From IMG/VR virus record IMGVR_UViG_2687453585_000002: DNA of 54,826 nt. One strand, written 5' to 3'. The notes beneath the pieces are model-generated. The model worked only from the letters and a program-made list of their open reading frames with translations. It was not told the origin of the DNA and made no database searches. A program made the translations under genes and the position numbers. The stretch comes from a virus. Taxonomy: Duplodnaviria; Heunggongvirae; Uroviricota; Caudoviricetes. Below, piece after piece: positions 3,986 through 24,325 of the stretch; the stretch's first letter is position 1, and each line of letters opens with the position of its first letter.

Positions 3986-4177
3986 TTAAAGACCTGCCGG
4001 GATTTCGTTATTATCCTGGTGAATAACTTTATCGACCGGGTAACAGTTACCGGGAATTTTCTGTTCGGTTGCTGCAGTCACACACTCCTGCATTGTCCTG
4101 TGAACACTGACTGCAATATCAACTGGCTCTCCGGAAACAAGAAAAACTGTCAGAACAAGTGCAAATGCTGTATTCAT
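3986..4177 (-). CDS. small membrane protein, YdfD-like (Qin-type lysis-associated protein)
   Basis: 63-aa product from internal Met (MNTAFALVLTVFLVSGEP...) with N-terminal hydrophobic segment; start codon overlaps dicB stop; position downstream of dicB as in dicBF operons. Confidence 0.45.
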   Translation of the reverse strand: MNTAFALVLTVFLVSGEPVDIAVSVHRTMQECVTAATEQKIPGNCYPVDKVIHQDNNEIPAGL

Positions 4178-4362
4178 TGCCAGCATCCTTTTTGTATCGG
4201 ACGTAAACGGGCCAGCATTGAAAGAATGCATATTTTATTTAATAGCTCCCGTTCGTGTTTTCTCTTGTTAATGGCATCTTCAGTAAATACAGGGTTACTG
4301 ATATTGACACCAATTTCAAAACAACCTTCAGACGTATTAACGTTTGGTAATAACGTTTCCAT
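4174..4362 (-). CDS. dicB: cell division inhibitor DicB
   Basis: 62-aa product METLLPNVNTSEGCFEIGVNISNPVFTEDAINKRKHERELLNKICILSMLARL... closely matches DicB as I recall it; preceded by DicF sRNA sequence. Confidence 0.8.
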   Translation of the reverse strand: METLLPNVNTSEGCFEIGVNISNPVFTEDAINKRKHERELLNKICILSMLARLRPIQKGCWQ

Positions 4363-11782: not shown

Positions 11783-12838
11783 GTGCGGGTATTACTTCGA
11801 CCTGTTCTGGTACCGGAACTCGGGCTGGTGATCGTTAAGCCGGGCCGTGAATCCATGCCGGTATTCCACAATACCCGGGTACTGGTGGAGCCGGAACCGA
11901 AAAGCATGCGTAATCTGCCGTCCGGGGTCGTTCCTGCCGTTCGCCAGCCGCTGGCGGAGGATAAATCATTACTGCCATTTTTCAGCGACGAACGAGTGAT
12001 TCGTGCTGCTGGTGGCGCTGGCGCATTGTCTGACTGGTTACTGCGCCATGTTAAATCCTGCCAGTGGCCACACGGCGATTATCACCACAGTGAAACCGTC
12101 ATTCACCGTTATGGTACCGGCGCAATGGTGTTGTGCTGGCACTGCGACAACCAGCTGCGCGACCAGACCTCCGAATCACTCGGGCAACTTGCTCACCAAA
12201 ACCTGTTTGCATGGATGATTGACGTCATACGCCATGCAATGAATGGCTCGCAGGAACGGGAATTATCGCTGGCTGAATTATCCTGGTGGGCGGTCCGCAA
12301 TCAGGTGGCGGACGCGCTACCGGAAGCGGTATTACGTCGTTCGCTGGGGTTGCGTGCGGAAAAAATCCGCTCAATGTACCGTGAAAGCGACATCGTACCG
12401 GGAGAGCAGACCGCCACCAGCATACTGAAGCAGCGCACAAAAAATCTTGCGCCGCTGCCTCACGCCCACCAGCAAAACCCGCCACAGGAAAAGACGGTGG
12501 TCAGCATTGCCGTTGATCCGGAGTCACCGGCTCAGTATCTCCAGCGCCAGAAATCACAACGGGAAGAGATGCCTGTATACACGCGTTGGGTAAAAACGCA
12601 GAAATGCATGACGTGTGGCAATCAGGCAGATGATCCGCATCACATCATTGGTCATGGACTGGGAGGGATGGGAACAAAGGCTGATGATTTGTTTGTTATT
12701 CCGCTGTGCCGTAAATGCCATAGCGAACTACACGCCGGGGTAAAAGATTTTGAAGAAAAACACGGCAGCCAGCTGTTGTTGCTGATTCGTTTTTTAATGC
12801 ACGCGAGAAATTCGGGTGTTCTGAAGTGGAAAGCATAA
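11783..12838 (+). CDS. DUF968/YdfU-like protein with C-terminal HNH-like cysteine/histidine motif
   Basis: GTG start with GGAGG RBS; C-terminal CMTCG...HHIIGHGLGGMG...CRKCH motif; 351 aa. Confidence 0.55.
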   Translation: MRVLLRPVLVPELGLVIVKPGRESMPVFHNTRVLVEPEPKSMRNLPSGVVPAVRQPLAEDKSLLPFFSDERVIRAAGGAGALSDWLLRHVKSCQWPHGDYHHSETVIHRYGTGAMVLCWHCDNQLRDQTSESLGQLAHQNLFAWMIDVIRHAMNGSQERELSLAELSWWAVRNQVADALPEAVLRRSLGLRAEKIRSMYRESDIVPGEQTATSILKQRTKNLAPLPHAHQQNPPQEKTVVSIAVDPESPAQYLQRQKSQREEMPVYTRWVKTQKCMTCGNQADDPHHIIGHGLGGMGTKADDLFVIPLCRKCHSELHAGVKDFEEKHGSQLLLLIRFLMHARNSGVLKWKA

Positions 12839-13219
12839 ATGACTGAACGCATAGAATTTGTTTTGCCTTACCCGCCAACGGTGAACACTTACTGGCGTCG
12901 TCGTGGCAGCACATATTTTGTATCAAAAGCCGGGGAGCGTTATCGCCGGGCAGTGGCGCTTATTGTTCGCCAGCAGCGGCTGAAATTAAGCCTGTCCGGA
13001 AGGTTGGCAATAAAAATTATTGCAGAACCACCGGATAAGCGCCGCCGTGATCTGGACAATATTCTGAAAGCGCCGCTGGATGCGCTGACGCATGCGGGGT
13101 TGCTAATGGACGATGAGCAGTTTGATGAAATCAATATCGTTCGTGGTCAGCCAGTATCTGGTGGACGTCTGGGGGTGAAGATTTACCCCATAATGCATGA
13201 AGAGCAGGTCAAAAAATGA
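12839..13219 (+). CDS. rusA: Holliday junction resolvase RusA
   Basis: 126 aa; conserved PPxxNxYW N-terminus and DRRRRDLDN catalytic motif. Confidence 0.85.
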   Translation: MTERIEFVLPYPPTVNTYWRRRGSTYFVSKAGERYRRAVALIVRQQRLKLSLSGRLAIKIIAEPPDKRRRDLDNILKAPLDALTHAGLLMDDEQFDEINIVRGQPVSGGRLGVKIYPIMHEEQVKK

Positions 13220-14037
13220 AACTGGAAGATTTACCGAAATACTACTCCCCAAAATCCCCCGGCCTGACTGATGCATCGGCCTCAACGTCGAAAGATGCGC
13301 TGAGTATCACTGATGTGATGGCCGCGCAGGGCATGACACAGAATCGGGCTGAGATGGGGTTTTCTGCGTTCCTGGGGAAAATGGGCATCAGTATGAATGA
13401 CAGGGCGCGGGCAACAGAATTACTGGCAGATTATGCACTCAGTCGGTGCGATCGTGTGGCGGCGTTGAGAAAACTTCCGGCAGAAATAAAACCGGTAGTG
13501 ATGCGCATTATGGCTTCGTACGCTTTTGAGGATTATGCCCGCAGCGCAGCGAGTAAAAAGCAGTGCCCCTGTTGCCGAGGGGAAAAATTTATTGAAGGCG
13601 AAGTTTTTACAAACAAGGTTCAGTATCCGGATGGCAAGCCGCCAGTATGGGCAAAGTGTACGAAAGGTGTGTATCCGTCTTACTGGGAAGAATGGAAAAA
13701 AATTCGGGAGGTGGTGAAAGTTTCTTGTCCTGAATGTAAAGGGAAGGGGGAGATTTCCACTGCCTGTAAAGACTGCCGTGGGCGTGGTGTCGCCATTCAT
13801 CGTGAAGAGTCGGTAAAACGTGGTATGCCTGTTATCAGAGACTGCCAGCGTTGTGGTGGTCGTGGCTGTGAAAGACTACCATCAACGGAGGCATTTAATG
13901 CCATATGCAAAGTGACGAGTGCTATCACGCTTGATACGTGGAAAAAATCAGTGAAACGCTTTTACGATACGTTGGTGGTTCGGTTTGACATTGAAGAGGC
14001 ATGGGCGGAGCGGCAGTTAAAGAGGGTAACGCGATAG
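13216..14037 (+). CDS. late gene antiterminator Q-like protein
   Basis: 273 aa with multiple CxxC zinc motifs; last gene before a strong terminator and the late region. Confidence 0.7.
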   Translation: MKLEDLPKYYSPKSPGLTDASASTSKDALSITDVMAAQGMTQNRAEMGFSAFLGKMGISMNDRARATELLADYALSRCDRVAALRKLPAEIKPVVMRIMASYAFEDYARSAASKKQCPCCRGEKFIEGEVFTNKVQYPDGKPPVWAKCTKGVYPSYWEEWKKIREVVKVSCPECKGKGEISTACKDCRGRGVAIHREESVKRGMPVIRDCQRCGGRGCERLPSTEAFNAICKVTSAITLDTWKKSVKRFYDTLVVRFDIEEAWAERQLKRVTR

Positions 14038-14117
14038 TGTTGTTGATTTTTCCCGAATCTGTGGTAAATTTGCTCTAACGATGGGCGTTTTATGCCTGAC
14101 GTTAGAAGATTTTTTAC

Positions 14118-14143
14118 ACCCCGCCGCCTGGCGGGTTTTTTAT
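14118..14143 (+). terminator. intrinsic terminator (tR'-like) downstream of Q
   Basis: CCGCC-GCCT-GGCGG hairpin followed by GTTTTTTAT. Confidence 0.7.
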
Positions 14144-14263
14144 GACTGAAATCGCGTCAGTACAGTAAACGCGCTGGTGGCGGTGAATACCTGTCTTTCA
14201 GCTTGCTGGCTTTTTCGACAAGAGTTATTGGTGTGTCACGTTAACCGGAAAAGGGAAAAAGAC

Positions 14264-14461
14264 ATGCTGAAACAGCAGGATATGACAGAAACCGCCAGAG
14301 TGGTGTTTAATGAATTAAGCGTCACCGAACCGGCGACAGCCGGGGAGATTGCGCAGAATACTTACCTTTCACGCGAACGCTGCCAGTTAATACTGACCCA
14401 GCTGGTTATGGCGGGTCTGGCAGACTATCAGTTCGGTTGTTACAGACGCCTTCCGCAGTGA
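14264..14461 (+). CDS. hypothetical small protein
   Basis: ATG at 14264 with AAGGGA RBS; 65 aa. Confidence 0.4.
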   Translation: MLKQQDMTETARVVFNELSVTEPATAGEIAQNTYLSRERCQLILTQLVMAGLADYQFGCYRRLPQ

Positions 14462-14612
14462 AGGCTTTTTTATTTGTGGTAAATGGGCGGCTGGTGGGTG
14501 TTAGGGGCACCCACCAGCCATCTGCTCATGCGTTGGGGTCACAAGCAAACCTCAGGCCCATCTGCTTTGCGCAAAAGCGGTATGAGCCTATCAGAGAAGT
14601 GCTTATTGATCT

Positions 14613-15662
14613 ATGGCTAATACTGTAAAAATATCCAGTTGTGAGTTAATCAACGCCGACTGCCTGGAATTTATCCGGTCGTTACCCGAAAATTCTGTTG
14701 ACCTGATAGTCACGGACCCGCCGTACTTTAAAGTGAAGCCTGAGGGCTGGGATAACCAGTGGAAGGGCGACGATGATTACCTGAAGTGGCTGGACCAGTG
14801 TCTGGCGCAGTTCTGGCGGGTGCTGAAACCTGCCGGAAGTCTTTACCTGTTCTGTGGTCATCGCCTGGCATCTGATATCGAAATCATGATGCGTGAACGC
14901 TTCAGTGTGCTGAACCATATTATCTGGGCGAAGCCGTCCGGACGCTGGAACGGATGCAACAAGGAAAGCCTGCGGGCGTATTTCCCCGCCACAGAGCGCA
15001 TTCTGTTCGCGGAACATTATCAGGGGCCGTATCGTCCGAAAGATGCCGGGTATGCGGCGAAGGGCAGTGCACTGAAACAGCATGTGATGGCCCCGCTGAT
15101 TTCTTACTTTCGTGATGCGCGCGCGGCCCTGGGGATAACGGCAAAACAGATTGCAGATGCCACAGGAAAGAAAAACATGGTGTCGCACTGGTTCAGTGCC
15201 AGTCAGTGGCAGCTACCGAACGAAAGCGATTATCTGAAATTACAGTCGCTGTTTGCCCGGGTGGCAGAAGAGAAACATCAGCGCGGTGAACTGGAAAAGC
15301 CCCACCACCAGCTGGTGGATACGTATACGTCACTGAACCGGCAGTATGTGGAGCTGCAGAGTGAATATAAGCATCTGCGGCGGTATTTTGGTGTGACGGC
15401 GCAGGTGCCGTACACGGATGTGTGGACACATAAACCGGTGCAGTTCTATCCCGGGAAACATCCGTGCGAAAAACCGGCAGAAATGCTGCAGCAGATAATC
15501 AGCGCAAGCAGTCGTCCGGGTGACCTGGTTGCAGATTTTTTTATGGGCTCAGGTTCAACGGTAAAAGCGGCACTGGCGCTCGGGCGTCGTGCGATTGGCG
15601 TTGAGCTGGAGACCGGACGTTTTGAGCAGACAGTCAGGGAAGTTCAGGGTTTAATCGTTTGA
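14613..15662 (+). CDS. DNA N6-adenine (or N4-cytosine) methyltransferase, orphan
   Basis: motif IV DPPY (IVTDPPYF) near N-terminus and motif I FxGxG (DFFMGSGS) near C-terminus; no adjacent restriction gene. Confidence 0.8.
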   Translation: MANTVKISSCELINADCLEFIRSLPENSVDLIVTDPPYFKVKPEGWDNQWKGDDDYLKWLDQCLAQFWRVLKPAGSLYLFCGHRLASDIEIMMRERFSVLNHIIWAKPSGRWNGCNKESLRAYFPATERILFAEHYQGPYRPKDAGYAAKGSALKQHVMAPLISYFRDARAALGITAKQIADATGKKNMVSHWFSASQWQLPNESDYLKLQSLFARVAEEKHQRGELEKPHHQLVDTYTSLNRQYVELQSEYKHLRRYFGVTAQVPYTDVWTHKPVQFYPGKHPCEKPAEMLQQIISASSRPGDLVADFFMGSGSTVKAALALGRRAIGVELETGRFEQTVREVQGLIV

Positions 15663-15711
15663 AACGGATGAGATTGCAGAATTAATTACGCACCATTATT
15701 ATTCTGCTCCC

Positions 15712-15787
15712 GGCCCTTTAGCTCAGTGGTGAGAGCGAGCGACTCATAATCGCCAGGTCGCTGGTTCAAATCCAGCAAGGGCCACCA
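15712..15787 (+). tRNA. tRNA with CAU anticodon (Ile2/Met type)
   Basis: acceptor stem GGCCCTT/AAGGGCC, GTTCAAATCC T-loop, anticodon loop CTCATAA, 3' CCA. Confidence 0.8.
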
Positions 15788-15887
15788 TCACAAACCGCCA
15801 TTAGCTTATCAGGAAGAGCAGACGACACGATAACAGGGTTGTTGGTGCGGGGGCGGGTCCCCGATGGCGGTCCATTATCGGTATTCA

Positions 15888-15964
15888 GCGTTGTTAGCTC
15901 AGCCGGACAGAGCAATTGCCTTCTAAGCAATCGGTCACTGGTTCGAATCCAGTACAGCGCGCCA
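15888..15964 (+). tRNA. tRNA-Arg (UCU)
   Basis: acceptor stem GCGTTGT/ACAGCGC, T-loop GGTTCGAATCC, anticodon loop CTTCTAA, 3' GCCA. Confidence 0.8.
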
Positions 15965-16071
15965 TATTCATTCTTCCAGATTCCTTCCGGCAGAGCCTTA
16001 TACTGAAATATACCTGGCTCAGGATATTGTTGAAAATATTATATGTTTGTCAAAAATAAAAGTTCTGTTAA

Positions 16072-16428
16072 GTGTTGATTGAGTGTTTGTTATACGGTCT
16101 AATGGTTTTTTCAGCATTAAATATTTATCATTCATATGGTGTGGGTAGAGTGAATATTGATGAGGCGTCGGGGTGTTTCATCCTTAGGCAGCGTATTGAT
16201 ATAGTCAATGCAGCACGAGCAAAGGCCTTCAGCCGTTTGACAGTTTTGTTCTGTACTCCTGATCGTCTTTCGGGAAGAGACGTTATTATTCTGAATAGTG
16301 ATGCTATACAGAGGGTTTGCGATGAGTTCATGGTGGCTAATTCAGAATTATTTACTCTTGTTCAGGAGTACAACAGAATAGCCAGGACCTGTGGTATGGA
16401 TGAACTTCGGATTACTCATCTGGGGTAG
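16072..16428 (+). CDS. hypothetical protein (cargo locus, function unknown)
   Basis: 118-aa ORF from GTG (in-frame ATG 16102 and GTG 16150 alternatives); no recognisable motif; weak RBS. Confidence 0.3.
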   Translation: MLIECLLYGLMVFSALNIYHSYGVGRVNIDEASGCFILRQRIDIVNAARAKAFSRLTVLFCTPDRLSGRDVIILNSDAIQRVCDEFMVANSELFTLVQEYNRIARTCGMDELRITHLG

Positions 16429-16875
16429 ATACATATCTGGATTATCACCGGTTACGGTAAAAAGTGATTGCTTACTGTTTTTGTGAATGGCATTGCTGCA
16501 GCCGGATAATGTCAGTGCTGGCTGACGGTGTGCTGGTGGCGGGTGTGGTGGTTGTTGCTTTCCCGTTGCTGAAAAAGAAAACGCCAGACTGTTAGCCGGG
16601 TATCAGTTAGCGGGAGAAATTTTTAAATACTTCACAATTCAGGCGGTTGATTGTTGTCTGGTTTGCGGGGAGTTTGTTAAAAGAAACTGGCATGGTGAAT
16701 CCCCCTGTGCGGAGGGGCAATCAGCGAGTAGGTATATGGGATAATCGCGGATTCAGGTGCTGGTACTGAATTCACCGGGAGGCACCCGGCACCATGCAAT
16801 GGCACATAGCGCCACTCTCCAGCCCCTCTCCGGAGGGGCTGTTTATATTGATTTTGTCAGATGTGAGTAAACTCC

Positions 16876-17211
16876 TTATGGACTTTGTTGTTTTAGTCCA
16901 TAAGGACATATTTGCAGAGTGCAACGGTTATTAAAGCATTCATTCAATACGTTATCTGTATTTGTAGGGCATTCCTGGCTGTTTTTGATTAAATTCCAGA
17001 ATGTTTTATTGAATGGTACTACGTTGTAAATGGTTACAGGTAGCACTTTGTTATTGAGCATGATGCCTGTGTGAGTCAGTGTAAATATACTTTCAGGAGG
17101 TAAGAAAGCATCCGATTGATACCAGATTATTAATTTTATTTTACTCCATATGACTGAAAAAGATATTCCGCATGATGGCTGGATAACTGTATCAATCACA
17201 ATCCACTTCAT
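16876..17211 (-). CDS. hypothetical cysteine-containing protein (AT-rich cargo)
   Basis: 111-aa ORF with AAGGAA RBS 7 nt upstream of ATG; 4 Cys in C-terminal third; visibly AT-rich relative to flanks. Confidence 0.45.
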
Positions 17212-17471
17212 TTAGTTTCCTTGTTTATGCCTTGCTGGTGATGTTCTGAAAAGTATAAATGATATTTTTGATTGTAAACCATAGAGCAGAATTATTTTTC
17301 TGATGTTGTTTATTGTTTATTTAAATGCAGGGTGGTTTATATCTCGTCTTGTAGTTTATCCATGCATATCTGCTTGATGATGAGGTTTTTATTTAAGGTA
17401 TGGTTTTGTGTTTTTTCTGTATTACATGTCAGGTATTTTAAAGAATCATTTTTCAGATGGTGGAAAGAACC

Positions 17472-19325
17472 ATGGCATTTAAACACTATGATGTTGTCAG
17501 GGCGGCGTCGCCGTCAGATCTTGCGGAAAAGCTGACACATAAACTGAAAGAGGGCTGGCAGCCGTTTGGTAGTCCGGTGGCCATAACCCCTTATACCCTG
17601 ATGCAGGCGATTGCAGCAGAAGGTGATGTGGTCGTCAGTGGTGCAACTGAGCCGGAGTGGTACTACGTCATCGTACTGGCCGGGCAATCCAATGCCATGG
17701 CTTACGGTGAAGGGCTTCCGCTTCCGGATTCATACGATGCGCCCCATCCGCGCATTAAGCAACTGGCCCGTCGTAACACAGTGACTCCCGGTGGTGAAGT
17801 ATGCGTATTTAACGACATCATTCCTGCTGACCATTGTCTGCATGATGTTCAGGATATGAGTACGATTAACCATCCCCGGGCTGACCTGAGCAAAGGGCAG
17901 TACGGCTGTGTCGGACAGGGCTTACATATTGCCAAAAAACTGCTTCCGTATATCCCTAATAATGCGGGGATCCTGCTGGTACCATGCTGTCGTGGTGGTT
18001 CGGCATTCACCCAGGGCACGGAGGGGACATTCAGCGAGTCCACGGGGGCCAGTCAGGATTCGGCTCGCTGGGGAGTGGGTAAGCCGTTATATCAGGATCT
18101 GCTTTTCCGCACGAAGGCAGCATTGCAGAAAAACCCGAAAAACGTTTTGCTGGCGATATGCTGGATGCAGGGGGAATTCGATATGACGAATGCCAGTTAC
18201 GCCCAGCAGCCAGCAGCATTTCTTGCAATGGTACAGCAGTTCCGTGCTGACCTTGCCGGGCTGGCGGCGCAGTGTCACGGTGGAAGTCCGGCATCAGTCC
18301 CCTGGATTTGTGGCGACACGACATACGCGTGGAAACAAGAACACGGTACGCAATATGAAGTGGTATATGGTGCATATAAAGGTAAAGAATCCCAGCAGAT
18401 TTATTTTGTTCCCTTTATGACCGATGGTAGCGGAGTTAATACACCGACAAACAACCCGTCAGAAGATCCTGATATTGCCGGGTCTGGTTATTACGGTTCG
18501 GCATCCCGAACGAACAAAAACTGGGTATCATCAAATCGCCCGACGCATTTCAGCTCATGGGCGCGTCGTGGCATTATTCCCGATCGTATGGCAACTGCTA
18601 TTCTGAACGTAGCCGGTCGCACCTTAGCCTTCATTAGTGGTAAGGCACCGGAAATCAAACCCTCGCCCGGCGGCGACACGCCATCGGGGCCGTCTGAAGA
18701 TGCATCCGTACGCACAATCTCCCTGTTGCCGACAGCCGGAGATGCTGCTGCGCAGGGCTGGAGCATTAAGAATGGCGGAATTCAGTTGTCAGATGGTGTA
18801 TTTAAGATCACCAAGCAGAGCAATAAAGCCTGGTCCCTGACGCGCCCGGTGGATGACGCAGTCTCCCTGCTGACACGGGGTGGCAGACTGAGCTGTAAGT
18901 TTCGACTGTCAGGCGCACTGACCAACAATCAGTTCGGTCTGGGAATTTATCTGTATACCGATGTAGCGTTACCTGACGTCGTGGCGATGACCGGGACTGG
19001 TAACCCGTTCCTGATGTCGTTCTTCACCCAGACCACAGACGGCAAACTGAATCTGATGCATCACAAGAAAGCAGGAAACACAAAGTTGGGCGAGTTCGGG
19101 AATTACAGTAACGACTGGCAGACGCTGGAGCTGGTGTTCACCGCCGGCAGTGCCACGGTTACTCCGAAACTGAATGGAGTGGCTGGCCCGGCATTCCAGG
19201 TCATAAAAGACAGTCTGACACTGGGGCTGAATGCGCTGACGCTGACGGATATTACCAAAAATGCAACGTATGGCGTTGAGATAGAAAGTCTGGTGCTGGA
19301 GATAAATGCACCGGCATCATCATAA
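17472..19325 (+). CDS. NanS-p-like sialate O-acetylesterase family protein
   Basis: GQSN motif (VIVLAGQSNAMAYGEG) typical of SASA-type esterases; ~620 aa; sits between Q/tRNAs and lysis genes as in Stx phages; start at ATG 17472 preferred over 17457. Confidence 0.7.
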   Translation: MAFKHYDVVRAASPSDLAEKLTHKLKEGWQPFGSPVAITPYTLMQAIAAEGDVVVSGATEPEWYYVIVLAGQSNAMAYGEGLPLPDSYDAPHPRIKQLARRNTVTPGGEVCVFNDIIPADHCLHDVQDMSTINHPRADLSKGQYGCVGQGLHIAKKLLPYIPNNAGILLVPCCRGGSAFTQGTEGTFSESTGASQDSARWGVGKPLYQDLLFRTKAALQKNPKNVLLAICWMQGEFDMTNASYAQQPAAFLAMVQQFRADLAGLAAQCHGGSPASVPWICGDTTYAWKQEHGTQYEVVYGAYKGKESQQIYFVPFMTDGSGVNTPTNNPSEDPDIAGSGYYGSASRTNKNWVSSNRPTHFSSWARRGIIPDRMATAILNVAGRTLAFISGKAPEIKPSPGGDTPSGPSEDASVRTISLLPTAGDAAAQGWSIKNGGIQLSDGVFKITKQSNKAWSLTRPVDDAVSLLTRGGRLSCKFRLSGALTNNQFGLGIYLYTDVALPDVVAMTGTGNPFLMSFFTQTTDGKLNLMHHKKAGNTKLGEFGNYSNDWQTLELVFTAGSATVTPKLNGVAGPAFQVIKDSLTLGLNALTLTDITKNATYGVEIESLVLEINAPASS

Positions 19326-19475
19326 AAAGTGAGCCAGTCAAATGGAAGGTATCGTTAAACTCACCGGTAGTGTCAGTGGGTCGTCTGAGATGCCTGCATG
19401 AGTTATCAGAGCCATCAGTACTTAACTGGTGGCTTTTTTTATTGTTGTCAGCTTCCGGATAACGGGAGACGGGGT

Positions 19476-19691
19476 ATGTACCAGATGGAAAAAATCACAA
19501 CAGGTGTGTCATACACCACGTCAGCGGTGGGAACGGGCTACTGGTTCCTGCAGTTGCTGGACAGGGTTTCCCCGTCTCAGTGGGCGGCAATAGGCGTGCT
19601 GGGGAGTCTGCTGTTTGGGCTGCTGACATATCTGACTAACCTGTATTTCAAAATCAGAGAGGACCGTCGTAAGGCGGCACGGGGAGAGTAA
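19476..19691 (+). CDS. pinholin, phage 21 S-like (class II holin)
   Basis: 71 aa, dual-start MYQM, two TM segments, C-terminus [22 protein letters not shown] matching S21 as recalled. Confidence 0.85.
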
Positions 19692-19695
19692 TTCA

Positions 19696-20040
19696 ATGAC
19701 TCAAAACTATGAACTGATTGTGAAAGGGATCCGCAATTTTGAGAATAAAGTTACGGTAACTTTAGCGTTACGGGACAAAAAACGCTTTGACGGTGAAATT
19801 TTTGACCTGGACATCTCGCTGGACCGTGTTGAAGGTGCCGCGCTGGAGTTTTATGAGGCAGCAGCCAGAAGGAGCATCAGACAGGTCTTCCTGGATGTTG
19901 CTGCCGGGTTATGTGAAGGGGATGAGCAGTCGCCGGAAAAGCGCCCCGTAATTTTAGAGGCGCAGGATGTGTTGATAACCTACAGAGGAAAACTACCGGG
20001 AATAATTACGGGTTCTCTGAAGAGTCCGCCGAAATGGTAA
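19696..20040 (+). CDS. hypothetical protein (lysis-cassette insert)
   Basis: 114-aa ORF 4 nt after holin stop with GGAG RBS; no recognisable motif. Confidence 0.4.
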   Translation: MTQNYELIVKGIRNFENKVTVTLALRDKKRFDGEIFDLDISLDRVEGAALEFYEAAARRSIRQVFLDVAAGLCEGDEQSPEKRPVILEAQDVLITYRGKLPGIITGSLKSPPKW

Positions 20041-20278
20041 TTTTACCAGCATATTTTTCATCCAGTAATACAGCAAGCCGCCTGAAAGAGTCTTGTTGTT
20101 CCTGAGACCATTTGGGATTGCATGATTCAAACTGGATTGATGCCAGCGTTGATTGCATCTGTTCCCTTGGAATTGAGAATGCCAGATATGAGAAGGCGAC
20201 GGTAAGGGTATTCACGTCTTCCCGAAGCCTGGAAATGCTGTCGAGCAACTCCTGTAGAGAAATGGTGTTATTGTCCAT
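20006..20278 (-). CDS. hypothetical protein (lysis-cassette insert)
   Basis: 90-aa ORF, GAGGA RBS; convergent with and overlapping previous ORF by 35 nt; abuts IS left end. Confidence 0.4.
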   Translation of the reverse strand: MDNNTISLQELLDSISRLREDVNTLTVAFSYLAFSIPREQMQSTLASIQFESCNPKWSQEQQDSFRRLAVLLDEKYAGKITISADSSENP

Positions 20279-20343
20279 AAATAATCCTCATGATTGTATT
20301 GACCTGTTGAAGTGGTTTACTGAATTTGGCCACCTGAACAGAG

Positions 20344-21527
<1,184 letters not shown>

Positions 21528-21636
21528 CTCGGTGGCCAGTTTTTGTTGACCACTTCATGTTAGCAGCCTGAGGCAACAGGCTGGAACTGATAAACATATC
21601 CAGGGCTCAGAAACCGATAAATCCTGATAAATATCC

Positions 21637-22170
21637 ATGAACGCAAAAATCAGATACGGCCTGTCGGCTGCCGTTCTGGCGCTGATTGCCGCTGGTGCGC
21701 CTGCGCCTGACATTCTCGACCAGTTTCTGGATGAAAAGGAAGGTAACCACACCACGGCATACCGTGATGGCGCGGGTATCTGGACCATCTGCCGCGGTGC
21801 CATCCTGGTGGATGGCAAACCTGTCGTTCCGGGCATGAAGTTGTCGAAGGAAAAATGCGACCGGGTTAACGCCATTGAGCGTGATAAGGCGCTGGCATGG
21901 GTGGAGAAAAACATCAAAGTGCCATTGACCGAACCCCAGAAAGCGGGGATCGCGTCATTCTGTCCGTACAACATTGGTCCCGGTAAGTGTTTCCCGTCGA
22001 CGTTTTACAGACGAATTAATGCAGGTGATCGCAGGGGAGCATGCGAAGCGATTCGCTGGTGGATTAAGGACGGTGGCAGAGACTGCCGTATTCGCTCAAA
22101 TAACTGTTACGGTCAGGTATTCCGTCGTGACCAGGAGAGCGCGCTGGCGTGCTGGGGAATCGACAGATAA
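21637..22170 (+). CDS. SAR endolysin (lysozyme, GH24-like)
   Basis: 177 aa; N-terminal weakly hydrophobic signal-anchor-release segment LSAAVLALIAAGA; lysozyme-like core; pairs with pinholin. Confidence 0.8.
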   Translation: MNAKIRYGLSAAVLALIAAGAPAPDILDQFLDEKEGNHTTAYRDGAGIWTICRGAILVDGKPVVPGMKLSKEKCDRVNAIERDKALAWVEKNIKVPLTEPQKAGIASFCPYNIGPGKCFPSTFYRRINAGDRRGACEAIRWWIKDGGRDCRIRSNNCYGQVFRRDQESALACWGIDR

Positions 22171-22263
22171 GCAGAATATTTTGCTGAAAAATGAGGTTGG
22201 CCAACGCGGGCGGATAACACGAAGTCCTGTGAACTGGCAAAACCTAAGTGAATAAAAGTAAAA

Positions 22264-22299
22264 ACCCCGTTTGTTGGCAGCAAGCGGGGTTTTGTTTTT
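22264..22299 (+). terminator. terminator-like hairpin after endolysin
   Basis: CCCCG...CGGGG stem followed by TTTTGTTTTT. Confidence 0.45.
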
Positions 22300-22364
22300 A
22301 TGGCAGTAAGCTATGGGAGGCTGCCTTGATTGATTTTAGCAAACTGATTAGGGAGTTGCGACTC

Positions 22365-22460
22365 ATGATTAGTCAATTACCAAACTGGAAATTTTTGCTG
22401 GTCTGGAGCATCCCTTTTTTATGGGTAGTATCCCAGTTAATTGTGGCAATTAAGGGGTAG
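22365..22460 (+). CDS. small hydrophobic peptide (31 aa)
   Basis: MISQLPNWKFLLVWSIPFLWVVSQLIVAIKG; single predicted TM; found by manual translation. Confidence 0.3.
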   Translation: MISQLPNWKFLLVWSIPFLWVVSQLIVAIKG

Positions 22461-22462
22461 CT

Positions 22463-22594
22463 ATGTCAGACAAACTCATAACGCCGGCAAAGGTCCTGTG
22501 TGTGATTGTCGGTATTTCATTTTCACTAATGCTGGTTGCTCTTTTTCTGTCCCTCGCCTGGGTGATGTTGTCTTCGTCGGGGCTGCTGGGGTGA
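22463..22594 (+). CDS. small hydrophobic peptide (43 aa)
   Basis: MSDKLITPAKVLCVIVGISFSLMLVALFLSLAWVMLSSSGLLG; AAGGGG RBS 6 nt upstream. Confidence 0.4.
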   Translation: MSDKLITPAKVLCVIVGISFSLMLVALFLSLAWVMLSSSGLLG

Positions 22595-22713
22595 CAGTGA
22601 CTGATGACATCAGCAGAGCGCTGGCTTTTGCTATTAAGTGGGTGGCTGTTGGTATTGCTGTGTCTCCGATGCTGTATGGGCTGGCAAAACTGGTCATTGC
22701 GCTGAAATCGTGA
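22591..22713 (+). CDS. small hydrophobic peptide (~40 aa)
   Basis: GTG start overlapping previous stop (GTGA coupling); ...ISRALAFAIKWVAVGIAVSPMLYGLAKLVIALKS. Confidence 0.3.
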   Translation: MTVTDDISRALAFAIKWVAVGIAVSPMLYGLAKLVIALKS

Positions 22714-22724
22714 ACTTTAAAAAG

Positions 22725-22811
22725 ATGAGTGCTGAACTTATTCGGGCAATGGCATTTGCCATTCGTATTGTGGCCATTGCTGTTCTGGTCTGGGCAATCC
22801 GTTGGTGGTGA
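22725..22811 (+). CDS. small hydrophobic peptide (28 aa), paralog of preceding peptide
   Basis: [28 protein letters not shown]; similar to RALAFAIKWVAVGIAV of neighbour; stop 1 nt before Rz start. Confidence 0.3.
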
Positions 22812-22812
22812 T

Positions 22813-23307
22813 ATGAACCGTGTTCTGTGTGTGGTGATTATTGTCATGCTGGTAGCCTGTGGTGTGCTTAGTCTGGGGCTGAATCATTACCGCGATAACG
22901 CCATCACCTACAAAGCGCAGCGCGATAAAAAAGTCAGTGAGCTGAAACTGGCGAATGCCACTATTACTGACATGCAGCAGCGCCAGCGAGATGTCGCTGC
23001 GCTTGATGCCAGATACACGAAGGAATTAGCCGATGCGAGAGCTGAAAATGAAACTCTGCGCGCTGATGTTGCCGCTGGTCGTAAGCGCCTGCGGGTCAAC
23101 GCCACCTGCCCCGGTACCGTGCGTGAAGCCACCGGCACCTCCAGCGTGGATAATGCAACCGGCCCCCGACTGGCAGACACCGCTGAACGGGATTATTTCA
23201 TCCTCAGAGAACGGTTGATGACAATGCAGAAGCAGCTGGAAGGGGCGCAGGAATATATCCGCACTCAGTGCACTAAGCTGGCTTTTTATTATCCGGAGGA
23301 TACATGA
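22813..23307 (+). CDS. Rz: i-spanin Rz
   Basis: 164 aa from ATG 22813; N-terminal TM, coiled-coil rest; embedded Rz1 in +1 frame. Confidence 0.8.
23048..23218 (+). CDS. Rz1: o-spanin Rz1 (lipoprotein) embedded in Rz
   Basis: lipobox LVVSAC, proline-rich mature region; wholly within Rz in alternate frame. Confidence 0.75.
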
Positions 23308-23519
23308 AGAAATTACGGGTAACCGTAGAACCTTTTCAGGGAACAATTCCGTTCCGTATTTTGCAGCGTGGTCGTGTTCTTGTTGAAGGTTCGTTCAGTG
23401 GTAAATGTACGCAATTACACTCCCGGACCTTTCAGGTGAATGCCACGAATGAAGAGCTAACCGTGGAGTGTACGATGAATGCCGCTAAATGCCGCATGGT
23501 ATTACAGCCAGTGTGTTGA
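23304..23519 (+). CDS. hypothetical small protein
   Basis: 71-aa ORF; ATG overlaps Rz stop; GGAGGA RBS. Confidence 0.4.
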
Positions 23520-23717
23520 GCGACCTTATTATCCATGCGCGGTATTGTCGCCGTATTCCTGCATTAACAGAGACCGCAGCCCGACAGGGAGACTCCTCTG
23601 CGCGAGTGTGCGGGGATAATCAAAAACGATACACACCGGGGTTTACCGCGTTAACGGAGCGCGGCGTTGTCCCCTCATAGTCGCCTGTCCGGTGCGATGG
23701 TGGAAGAAACCGAACGT

Positions 23718-23918
23718 TCATTTCTCGTTATTTGTCATGCTGGCCGGGCGCAGATGCGTTGCATCTGTTGCCAGCCTTCTCCTGCAGGCTTCAATAACCC
23801 ACGCTGAAAAGTTACCGGACCCTTTATGCTCAAGGGCGATGTTGATCTGTTCAATTATGTGATTGGGGAAACGGATATTGCGGGTTGTGGTTCTGCGGGT
23901 CCGGTTTTTCGATGACAT
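23718..23918 (-). CDS. ribbon-helix-helix-like small protein (YlcI/DUF3950-like)
   Basis: 66 aa from internal ATG with AAGGA RBS; IRFPNHIIEQINIALEHKGSGNFSAWVIEACRRRL resembles RHH fold pattern. Confidence 0.45.
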   Translation of the reverse strand: MSSKNRTRRTTTRNIRFPNHIIEQINIALEHKGSGNFSAWVIEACRRRLATDATHLRPASMTNNEK

Positions 23919-23959
23919 ATTTATTTCCTTTACTGATTGCCATATGACGGGGATTTTAC

Positions 23960-24325
23960 ATGGCTGAGCTTCGTACACTCCAGAGCAGAATCAAAACACT
24001 GAATACCCGACGGGTGAATATTCTGAAGGGGGAGCAGCGTCGTGTCAGTGGCAGTGCACGTGTTTCCCTCAAGCGTCATATCTGGCTGAGGGACGCCGGG
24101 CAGTGCTGTATCTGTGGTCGTGTGGTTGACCTCTGTGACAGTGAACTCGATCACCGAATTGCACTTCAGTTCGGTGGTGGTAATGAGGAGACGAATCTTT
24201 GGACGCTCTGTGCCGAATGCCATCGACAAAAGTCTGCTCGTGAAGCGGCGAGTGGTATGCCGGACCCGACGCTGCCGGAGGTGTCCGGAGGTAGTGGCAG
24301 AGAGGACGACATCATCGGACTGTAA
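23960..24325 (+). CDS. HNH endonuclease (packaging-associated)
   Basis: CxxC...DH...N...CxxCH motif (CCICG...DHRIAL...NLWTLCAECH); directly upstream of cos-like region and terminase. Confidence 0.8.
   Translation: MAELRTLQSRIKTLNTRRVNILKGEQRRVSGSARVSLKRHIWLRDAGQCCICGRVVDLCDSELDHRIALQFGGGNEETNLWTLCAECHRQKSAREAASGMPDPTLPEVSGGSGREDDIIGL

Follow-up and report, generated by a model that had tools for sequence, protein, structure and literature searches.

The main cargo of the E. coli prophage slot analysed here is iraL, the gene for an RssB anti-adaptor that protects RpoS, and is not the new toxin or defence system to which a first-pass annotation had pointed. The window is a stretch of 54,826 nucleotides from a virus of the Caudoviricetes (IMG/VR record IMGVR_UViG_2687453585_000002). 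Its interval 15965-17471 is very probably a moron slot, mosaic in structure, in a lambdoid prophage and holds four independent and already catalogued elements. The known parts of the cargo are IraL, the small RNA STnc100 and a DUF3927 protein, leaving over one conserved small gene that is unannotated.

Gene order and borders of the cargo slot

The cargo interval is set in the late-regulatory region of a lambdoid prophage (Table 1). The order Q, terminator, methyltransferase, tRNAs, cargo, NanS-p and lysis genes, which the first-pass annotation had described, is present at the coordinates listed, and the slot between the phage tRNAs and nanS-p is indeed the moron site that holds stxAB in Stx phages. 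The accompanying statement that the cargo is not stx was also borne out, the RIP domain of the Shiga toxin A subunit and genes for the B subunit being absent among the ORFs and Pfam matches from the tRNAs to nanS-p. The tRNA with anticodon CAU, typed as Met by ARAGORN, is identical to a gene annotated by PGAP as tRNA-Ile of the lysidine type, which reads AUA.

Two features outside the cargo were recorded. The 94-aa ORF that precedes the methyltransferase gene matches phrog_331, a family of unknown function, and gives a weak TrmB-like HTH signal (E 0.004); the PGAP version of this ORF is 65 aa long. An IS3-family element of 1249 bp (20309-21557; orfA 20344-20682, orfB 20709-21527) interrupts the lysis region ahead of the lysozyme gene and is the sole difference from the prophage of E. 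coli strain 4/1-1, which is otherwise 100% identical over positions 12000-24000 of the window.

Table 1. Features of the cargo slot and its surroundings. Positions are those of the window except in the last two lines, which refer to two comparison loci.
Feature	Position	Strand	Remarks
Q-type antiterminator	13216-14037		
Terminator-like hairpins	14071-14135		
94-aa ORF	14177-14461		Between tR'-like terminators and methyltransferase
N6/N4 DNA methyltransferase	14613-15662		
tRNA, anticodon CAU	15712-15787	+	Met per ARAGORN
tRNA-Arg(UCU)	15888-15964	+	Left border of cargo slot
Cargo	15965-17456		
118-aa ORF	16072-16428	+	Frame of the 92-aa ORF, extended upstream to GTG 16072
92-aa protein, phrog_2873	16150-16428	+	Predicted antiparallel helical hairpin
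DUF3927/TciB-like small membrane protein (predicted), 43 aa	16464-16595	+	One hydrophobic helix
STnc100-family sRNA gene (RF02076)	16661-16850	+	Full length; Rfam
Intrinsic-terminator-like hairpin	16820-16841	+	9 pairs, 7 GC, then TTTATATTGA; 3' end of STnc100
iraL, RssB anti-adaptor of the IraM family, 111 aa	16876-17211	-	NF007393, 8twd, identity to CFT073
iraL 5' UTR	17212-17244	-	CFT073 5' RACE start at about 17244
iraL promoter and AT-rich (29% GC) upstream regulatory region	17245-17456	-	
NanS-p-type esterase (DUF1737 + SASA + DUF6645)	17457-19325	+	Right border of slot
Holin, YdfR-like gene, lysozyme, remaining lysis cassette	Downstream of the NanS-p-type esterase		
Duplicated STnc100, locus L004	2344-2556 and 5650-5839		
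Duplicated STnc100, locus L013	3663-3856 and 4132-4320		

Identity of the minus-strand gene

The cargo had been described as uncharacterised and its 111-aa minus-strand ORF as having no recognisable domains; neither description holds. The ORF matched the NCBIfam model NF007393 ("anti-adapter protein IraM") over residues 1-110 with 162 bits, above the cutoff of 121, and a comparison of sequences aligned residues 1-78 with IraM of the IraM-RssB complex (PDB 8twd_A) at an E value of 9.1e-32. The N-terminal ~78 residues appear homologous to the PmrD-like beta-barrel domain of IraM. Protein and coding DNA alike show 100% identity to IraL of UPEC CFT073 (WP_000871291.1), a protein characterised experimentally (PMC4045071) and encoded in that strain by a prophage adjoining potB. 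The 1507 nt of 15965-17471 align with the CFT073 locus ungapped at 98.7% identity, and megablast of the same interval returned many ST131-type genomes in which iraL is 100% identical. The gene together with its promoter was found in 1446 of 5426 complete E. coli genomes, where the annotation is always IraM. On identity of sequence, the ORF is IraL, an RpoS-protecting protein already studied in CFT073.

Other features that had been noted for this region were largely confirmed. The strong ribosome binding site is present as the Shine-Dalgarno sequence AAGGAA, 7 nt before the ATG. The cysteines number five and not four as first counted; four of them are in the C-terminal tail, and a four-Cys tail is common to K-12 IraM. 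The markedly AT-rich block is real (GC 0.29-0.36 over 16876-17456) and is the iraL gene with its promoter region; the GC content is 0.35 within the ORF and 0.29 in the upstream 245 nt.

The segment matching 16876-17456 is interrupted in ST131 strain 4224 (NZ_CP103592.1) by an IS1 insertion in iraL or its promoter, which could be a natural iraL knock-out or promoter mutant. The codon usage of the gene was also recorded: the rare codon ATA accounts for 6 of the 13 Ile codons of iraL, and the prophage tRNA(CAU) sits 1.1 kb upstream. A codon-supply link between the two, like that proposed for stx, is possible.

Transcription of iraL and activity of its product

[quoted passage not shown] In CFT073 the mRNA start was mapped by 5' RACE and the promoter assigned to sigma-70 (PMC4045071). 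Upstream of the equivalent start in the window, the hexamers TATACT (17257-17252) and TTTACA (17278-17273) were placed by reading the sequence, and the 245-nt upstream region has 7 mismatches relative to CFT073.

The gene was discovered in CFT073 in a genomic-library screen for raised RpoS-dependent reporter activity (Hryckowian et al. 2014, mBio, PMC4045071). The CFT073 protein binds RssB and stabilises RpoS in logarithmic growth (PMC4045071), and the function of IraL is also documented in PMC7157518 and PMC10948607. Based on its identity to the CFT073 protein, the prophage IraL would likewise bind the adaptor RssB and block delivery of RpoS to ClpXP, with higher RpoS in logarithmic phase as the predicted outcome.

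The orientation of iraL is antisense to the Q-dependent late transcript, and the gene has its own mapped start site. It had been argued that any cargo of this slot, being downstream of the Q-dependent late promoter, is strongly expressed on induction; the argument is not applicable to iraL because the gene is on the opposite strand with its own sigma-70 start. Transcription from this promoter, against the direction of the phage late operon, would mean that IraL is made in the lysogen during growth. We infer that iraL is a moron expressed by the lysogen rather than on induction, and that late transcription antiterminated by Q would oppose it. The 92-aa gene, the DUF3927 gene and STnc100 are predicted to be in the path of the late transcript, with iraL opposite. 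In the exact slot that stxAB occupies in Stx phages, and antisense to the late operon, the prophage carries a gene whose product raises RpoS in growing cells of ExPEC lineages, for example ST131 and CFT073.

STnc100 and its probable role in the exchange of cassettes

The two GC-rich hairpins noted in the cargo are present (about 16775-16790 and 16820-16841) but are not uncharacterised, since both lie inside STnc100, a known small RNA. The Rfam model was matched over its full length (positions 1-206 of 206) with 132.4 bits against a gathering score of 47, and the second hairpin is followed by a T-rich tail. STnc100 was seen in every E. coli or Shigella locus examined for this slot, and in Shigella phage 75/02 Stx it separates stx1B, which it follows directly, from the esterase gene. 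In Stx2 phages it is about 75 nt downstream of stx2 (PMC12370729). It is related to the PasD sRNAs (bioRxiv 10.64898/2026.05.13.724894), and for its targets the literature offers predictions only. A scan for promoters returned 6 sites where 6.3 are expected from shuffled sequence, and none is claimed for STnc100 or for the plus-strand ORFs. STnc100 is predicted to be a structured sRNA with a terminator end; in Stx phages it closes the cassette behind stxB, and here it would do the same for the plus-strand cargo.

Two observations concern the minus strand in and beside STnc100. In identical genomes PGAP places a partial 'hypothetical protein' pseudogene at ~16680-16805 of the minus strand, wholly within STnc100; this protein call is probably spurious. 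Shigella phage 75/02 Stx has a match to the AgvB (anti-GcvB) sRNA, at the gathering threshold, on the minus strand directly after STnc100 (positions 4166-4225 of that locus, L011), in the same place and orientation as iraL in the window.

Comparison with other phages revealed a mosaic. Positions 15965-16798 match phage mEp460_ev081 at 98.7% and positions 16632-17471 match vB_EcoS-640R1 at 96.9%, and the breakpoints (16632 and 16798) are at or inside STnc100. Each cargo cassette ends, on its 3' side, in STnc100, and the element is doubled where two cassettes are stacked, as in loci L004 and L013 (Table 1). Because it recurs at the ends of cassettes in the few loci compared, STnc100 probably provides the homology for cassette exchange, acting as a recombination linker. 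Its presence both at cassette ends and at breakpoints suggests a way in which cargo is swapped at this slot.

The plus-strand reading frames

The description of the 118-aa plus-strand ORF as without recognisable domains stands as far as Pfam, NCBIfam, the PDB (sequences and profiles) and PADLOC are concerned, none of which gave a significant match. A family was found nonetheless: the 92-aa core matches phrog_2873, a phage protein family of unknown function, with an E value of 1.7e-57 over profile positions 17-108 of 108. The true start is probably GTG 16150, giving 92 aa. This shorter form is favoured by the starts of homologs, by an alignment with a diverged E. coli allele that is gap-free only from GTG 16150 to the stop codon, and by the low confidence assigned to the additional residues (AF2 pLDDT under 55 for residues 1-27 of the 118-aa form). 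In distant relatives the position equivalent to 16150 holds an ATG start with a good Shine-Dalgarno sequence before it; alleles in E. coli start with GTG, and their Shine-Dalgarno sequence is weak.

The second plus-strand ORF had been noted as a possible hydrophobic peptide of 28 aa at 16509-16595. The reading frame exists but is not undescribed, being part of a 43-aa ORF from GTG 16464 (WP_023142244.1 in PGAP) that matches PF13064 (DUF3927) with 93.2 bits against a gathering score of 25 and also matches phrog_1470. The Kyte-Doolittle peak of 2.47 over residues 18-36 indicates a single hydrophobic helix, and the gene is predicted to encode a small membrane protein. A literature search on DUF3927 found no functional account. 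In phage JLK-2012 and in a Citrobacter prophage, the DUF3927 gene follows and overlaps tciA, a gene with a TerB domain; no TerB ORF is present within 15965-16464 of the window. The ORF, orphaned from its TerB-like partner and with a weak start context, may be a remnant.

It could be argued more broadly that both plus-strand ORFs are non-functional debris of cassette exchange and that only iraL and STnc100 matter. Consistent with this argument are the start context of the 92-aa ORF, the lack of PGAP annotation beneath it in the sampled RefSeq rows, frameshifted variants in the databases (P0013, P0021 and P0024), the DUF3927 gene without its TerB-like partner, and a counterpart ORF in locus L009 that is below DUF3927 scoring. 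The evolution of the 92-aa ORF makes the argument unlikely. Against the diverged E. coli allele (68% nucleotide identity), dN/dS was 0.28 over the 92 codons with dS of about 1, 42 of 88 differences were at third codon positions, neither allele contained a stop, and the alignment was free of gaps only inside the 92-aa ORF. Also against it are a family that extends to at least five enterobacterial genera with its length and its place, leading the late operon, conserved, the confident model of the 92-aa form, and a DUF3927 ORF that is intact and scores 93 bits. The antisense frame -1 gave a dN/dS of 0.24, which was rejected as a mirror artefact, this frame having its third positions in common with the sense frame and containing stops.

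Profile searches of protein databases extended the family, at 91-99 aa, to Citrobacter, Salmonella, Serratia, Morganella and Xenorhabdus. In the prophages of Citrobacter, Serratia and Morganella the gene is located between the holin gene and Q, the latter accompanied or not by a methyltransferase and tRNAs. A branch within E. coli is carried on a plasmid and adjoins fimbrial genes, and in a scan of GTDB species representatives only the E. coli representative matched. The region (16060-16430 of the window) was found in 1314 of 5426 complete E. coli genomes, and in RefSeq no feature was present beneath the ORF in 13 of 13 sampled rows covering it, which looks like a systematic annotation gap. 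RefSeq annotation has missed a conserved gene that about one in four complete E. coli genomes carries. A 727-aa repeat protein (P0029) matched in a library of representatives was rejected as a low-complexity or repeat artefact.

AF2, with an alignment of 20 sequences, modelled the 92-aa form as an antiparallel two-helix hairpin (predicted helices 3-34 and 50-81; pLDDT 88.9). The TPDR motif of the connecting loop is conserved among closer relatives and not family-wide. Fold searches returned generic hairpins only, and Foldseek with a first model (pLDDT 68) gave no match in the PDB at E <= 0.001. The best family matches of the ORF, to RHIM (E 0.096) and UPF0335 (E 0.054), were rejected as noise.

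Two arrangements around relatives of the gene were recorded. The diverged allele, in this same slot of other prophages, is located just downstream of a gene for a 241-aa AraC-family regulator (PF12833) in two loci (L009 164-889; L004 2933-3658). In L004 an IS3-family element takes the place of the N-terminal extension of the ORF, and the 92-aa core is intact.

Judged from sequence conservation, the 118-aa ORF is a real conserved gene and the sole element of the cargo truly without an assigned function. The fuller reading, in which the gene encodes a real protein of lambdoid phages that is expressed late and serves a so far undescribed function, is held at about even confidence. The 92-aa protein would most likely be co-transcribed with the late operon and, speculating from the predicted hairpin, would most likely act by protein-protein binding. 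It might control the timing of lysis, take part in host takeover or mediate superinfection exclusion.

Relation of IraL to K-12 IraM

RefSeq names the iraL gene 'anti-adapter protein IraM' and the ORF is 62% identical to K-12 IraM over 107 residues, results that might be taken to indicate a functional equivalent of K-12 IraM, the protein induced through PhoPQ on Mg2+ starvation, and not IraL. The residues that contact RssB, defined as clusters II and III of IraM (PMC10844676), are the same in both proteins at C14, F18, W30, I61 and Y62, and the substitutions from IraM to IraL (T13S, H63N, I64V and L75I) are conservative. Equivalence to IraM is nevertheless very unlikely. The complete identity is to CFT073 IraL and not to IraM, and the promoter region matches the iraL 5' RACE sequence. 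The gene is in a prophage late region whereas K-12 iraM adjoins e14. Finally, other inducing conditions and another pattern of interaction with RssB domains are given for IraL (PMC4045071). The minus-strand gene is best read as iraL.

Separate modules in one slot

The elements of the cargo occur apart in other phages: mEp460_ev081 has the block of the 92-aa ORF and DUF3927 without iraL, vB_EcoS-640R1 has iraL without the 92-aa ORF, and JLK-2012 has DUF3927 with tciA. The four elements are for this reason considered separable modules and not one system. Searches with the component models of PADLOC-DB 2.0 returned 0 families at E <= 0.1 for all four ORFs. What survives of the proposal of an undescribed toxin, defence or host-modulating system is host modulation, through IraL; the system is not undescribed, and no toxin or defence family was matched. 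A single undescribed system composed of two domain-less convergent ORFs and a peptide, for which could be cited the known moron site, the AT-rich and foreign-looking cargo and a 92/118-aa ORF without a match in Pfam, NCBIfam, the PDB or PADLOC, is extremely improbable, considering that named families account for three of the four elements, IraL among them being experimentally characterised, that the elements separate in the three phages above, that iraL is on the opposite strand with its own promoter, and that there were zero PADLOC matches.

Comparison with known systems

The closest known counterpart of the mosaic slot is the CFT073 locus, which has the same succession of tRNA-Arg, 500 unannotated nt, DUF3927, STnc100, iraL and a DUF1737 esterase gene, and the same sequence of the iraL 5' UTR and transcription start. 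The esterase gene is truncated in CFT073 whereas nanS-p is intact in the prophage described here. Upstream, CFT073 has an IS200 and a third tRNA and the methyltransferase is absent; in the prophage described here the methyltransferase precedes the tRNAs. The CFT073 site is named the 'potB genomic island' (PMC4045071) and not a moron slot equivalent to that of stx.

As in Stx phages, STnc100 occupies the place just ahead of the nanS-p esterase, and its terminator hairpin is the same. Unlike in those phages, it follows the DUF3927 gene and not stxB, and iraL is located between STnc100 and nanS-p. The tciA-tciB pair of phage JLK-2012 resembles the present DUF3927 gene in the family match, the single helix and the slot before STnc100 and nanS-p; the differences are the absence of tciA and a shorter N-terminus (43 aa compared with 50-54 aa). 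The phrog_2873 relatives in Citrobacter, Serratia and Morganella occupy the same Q-to-holin position as the 92-aa gene. Lastly, K-12 IraM (PDB 8twd; PMC10844676) shares with IraL the NF007393 family and RssB contacts that are conserved or conservatively replaced, and differs from it in the promoter, in the inducing signal (PhoPQ, low Mg2+) and in a locus that adjoins e14.
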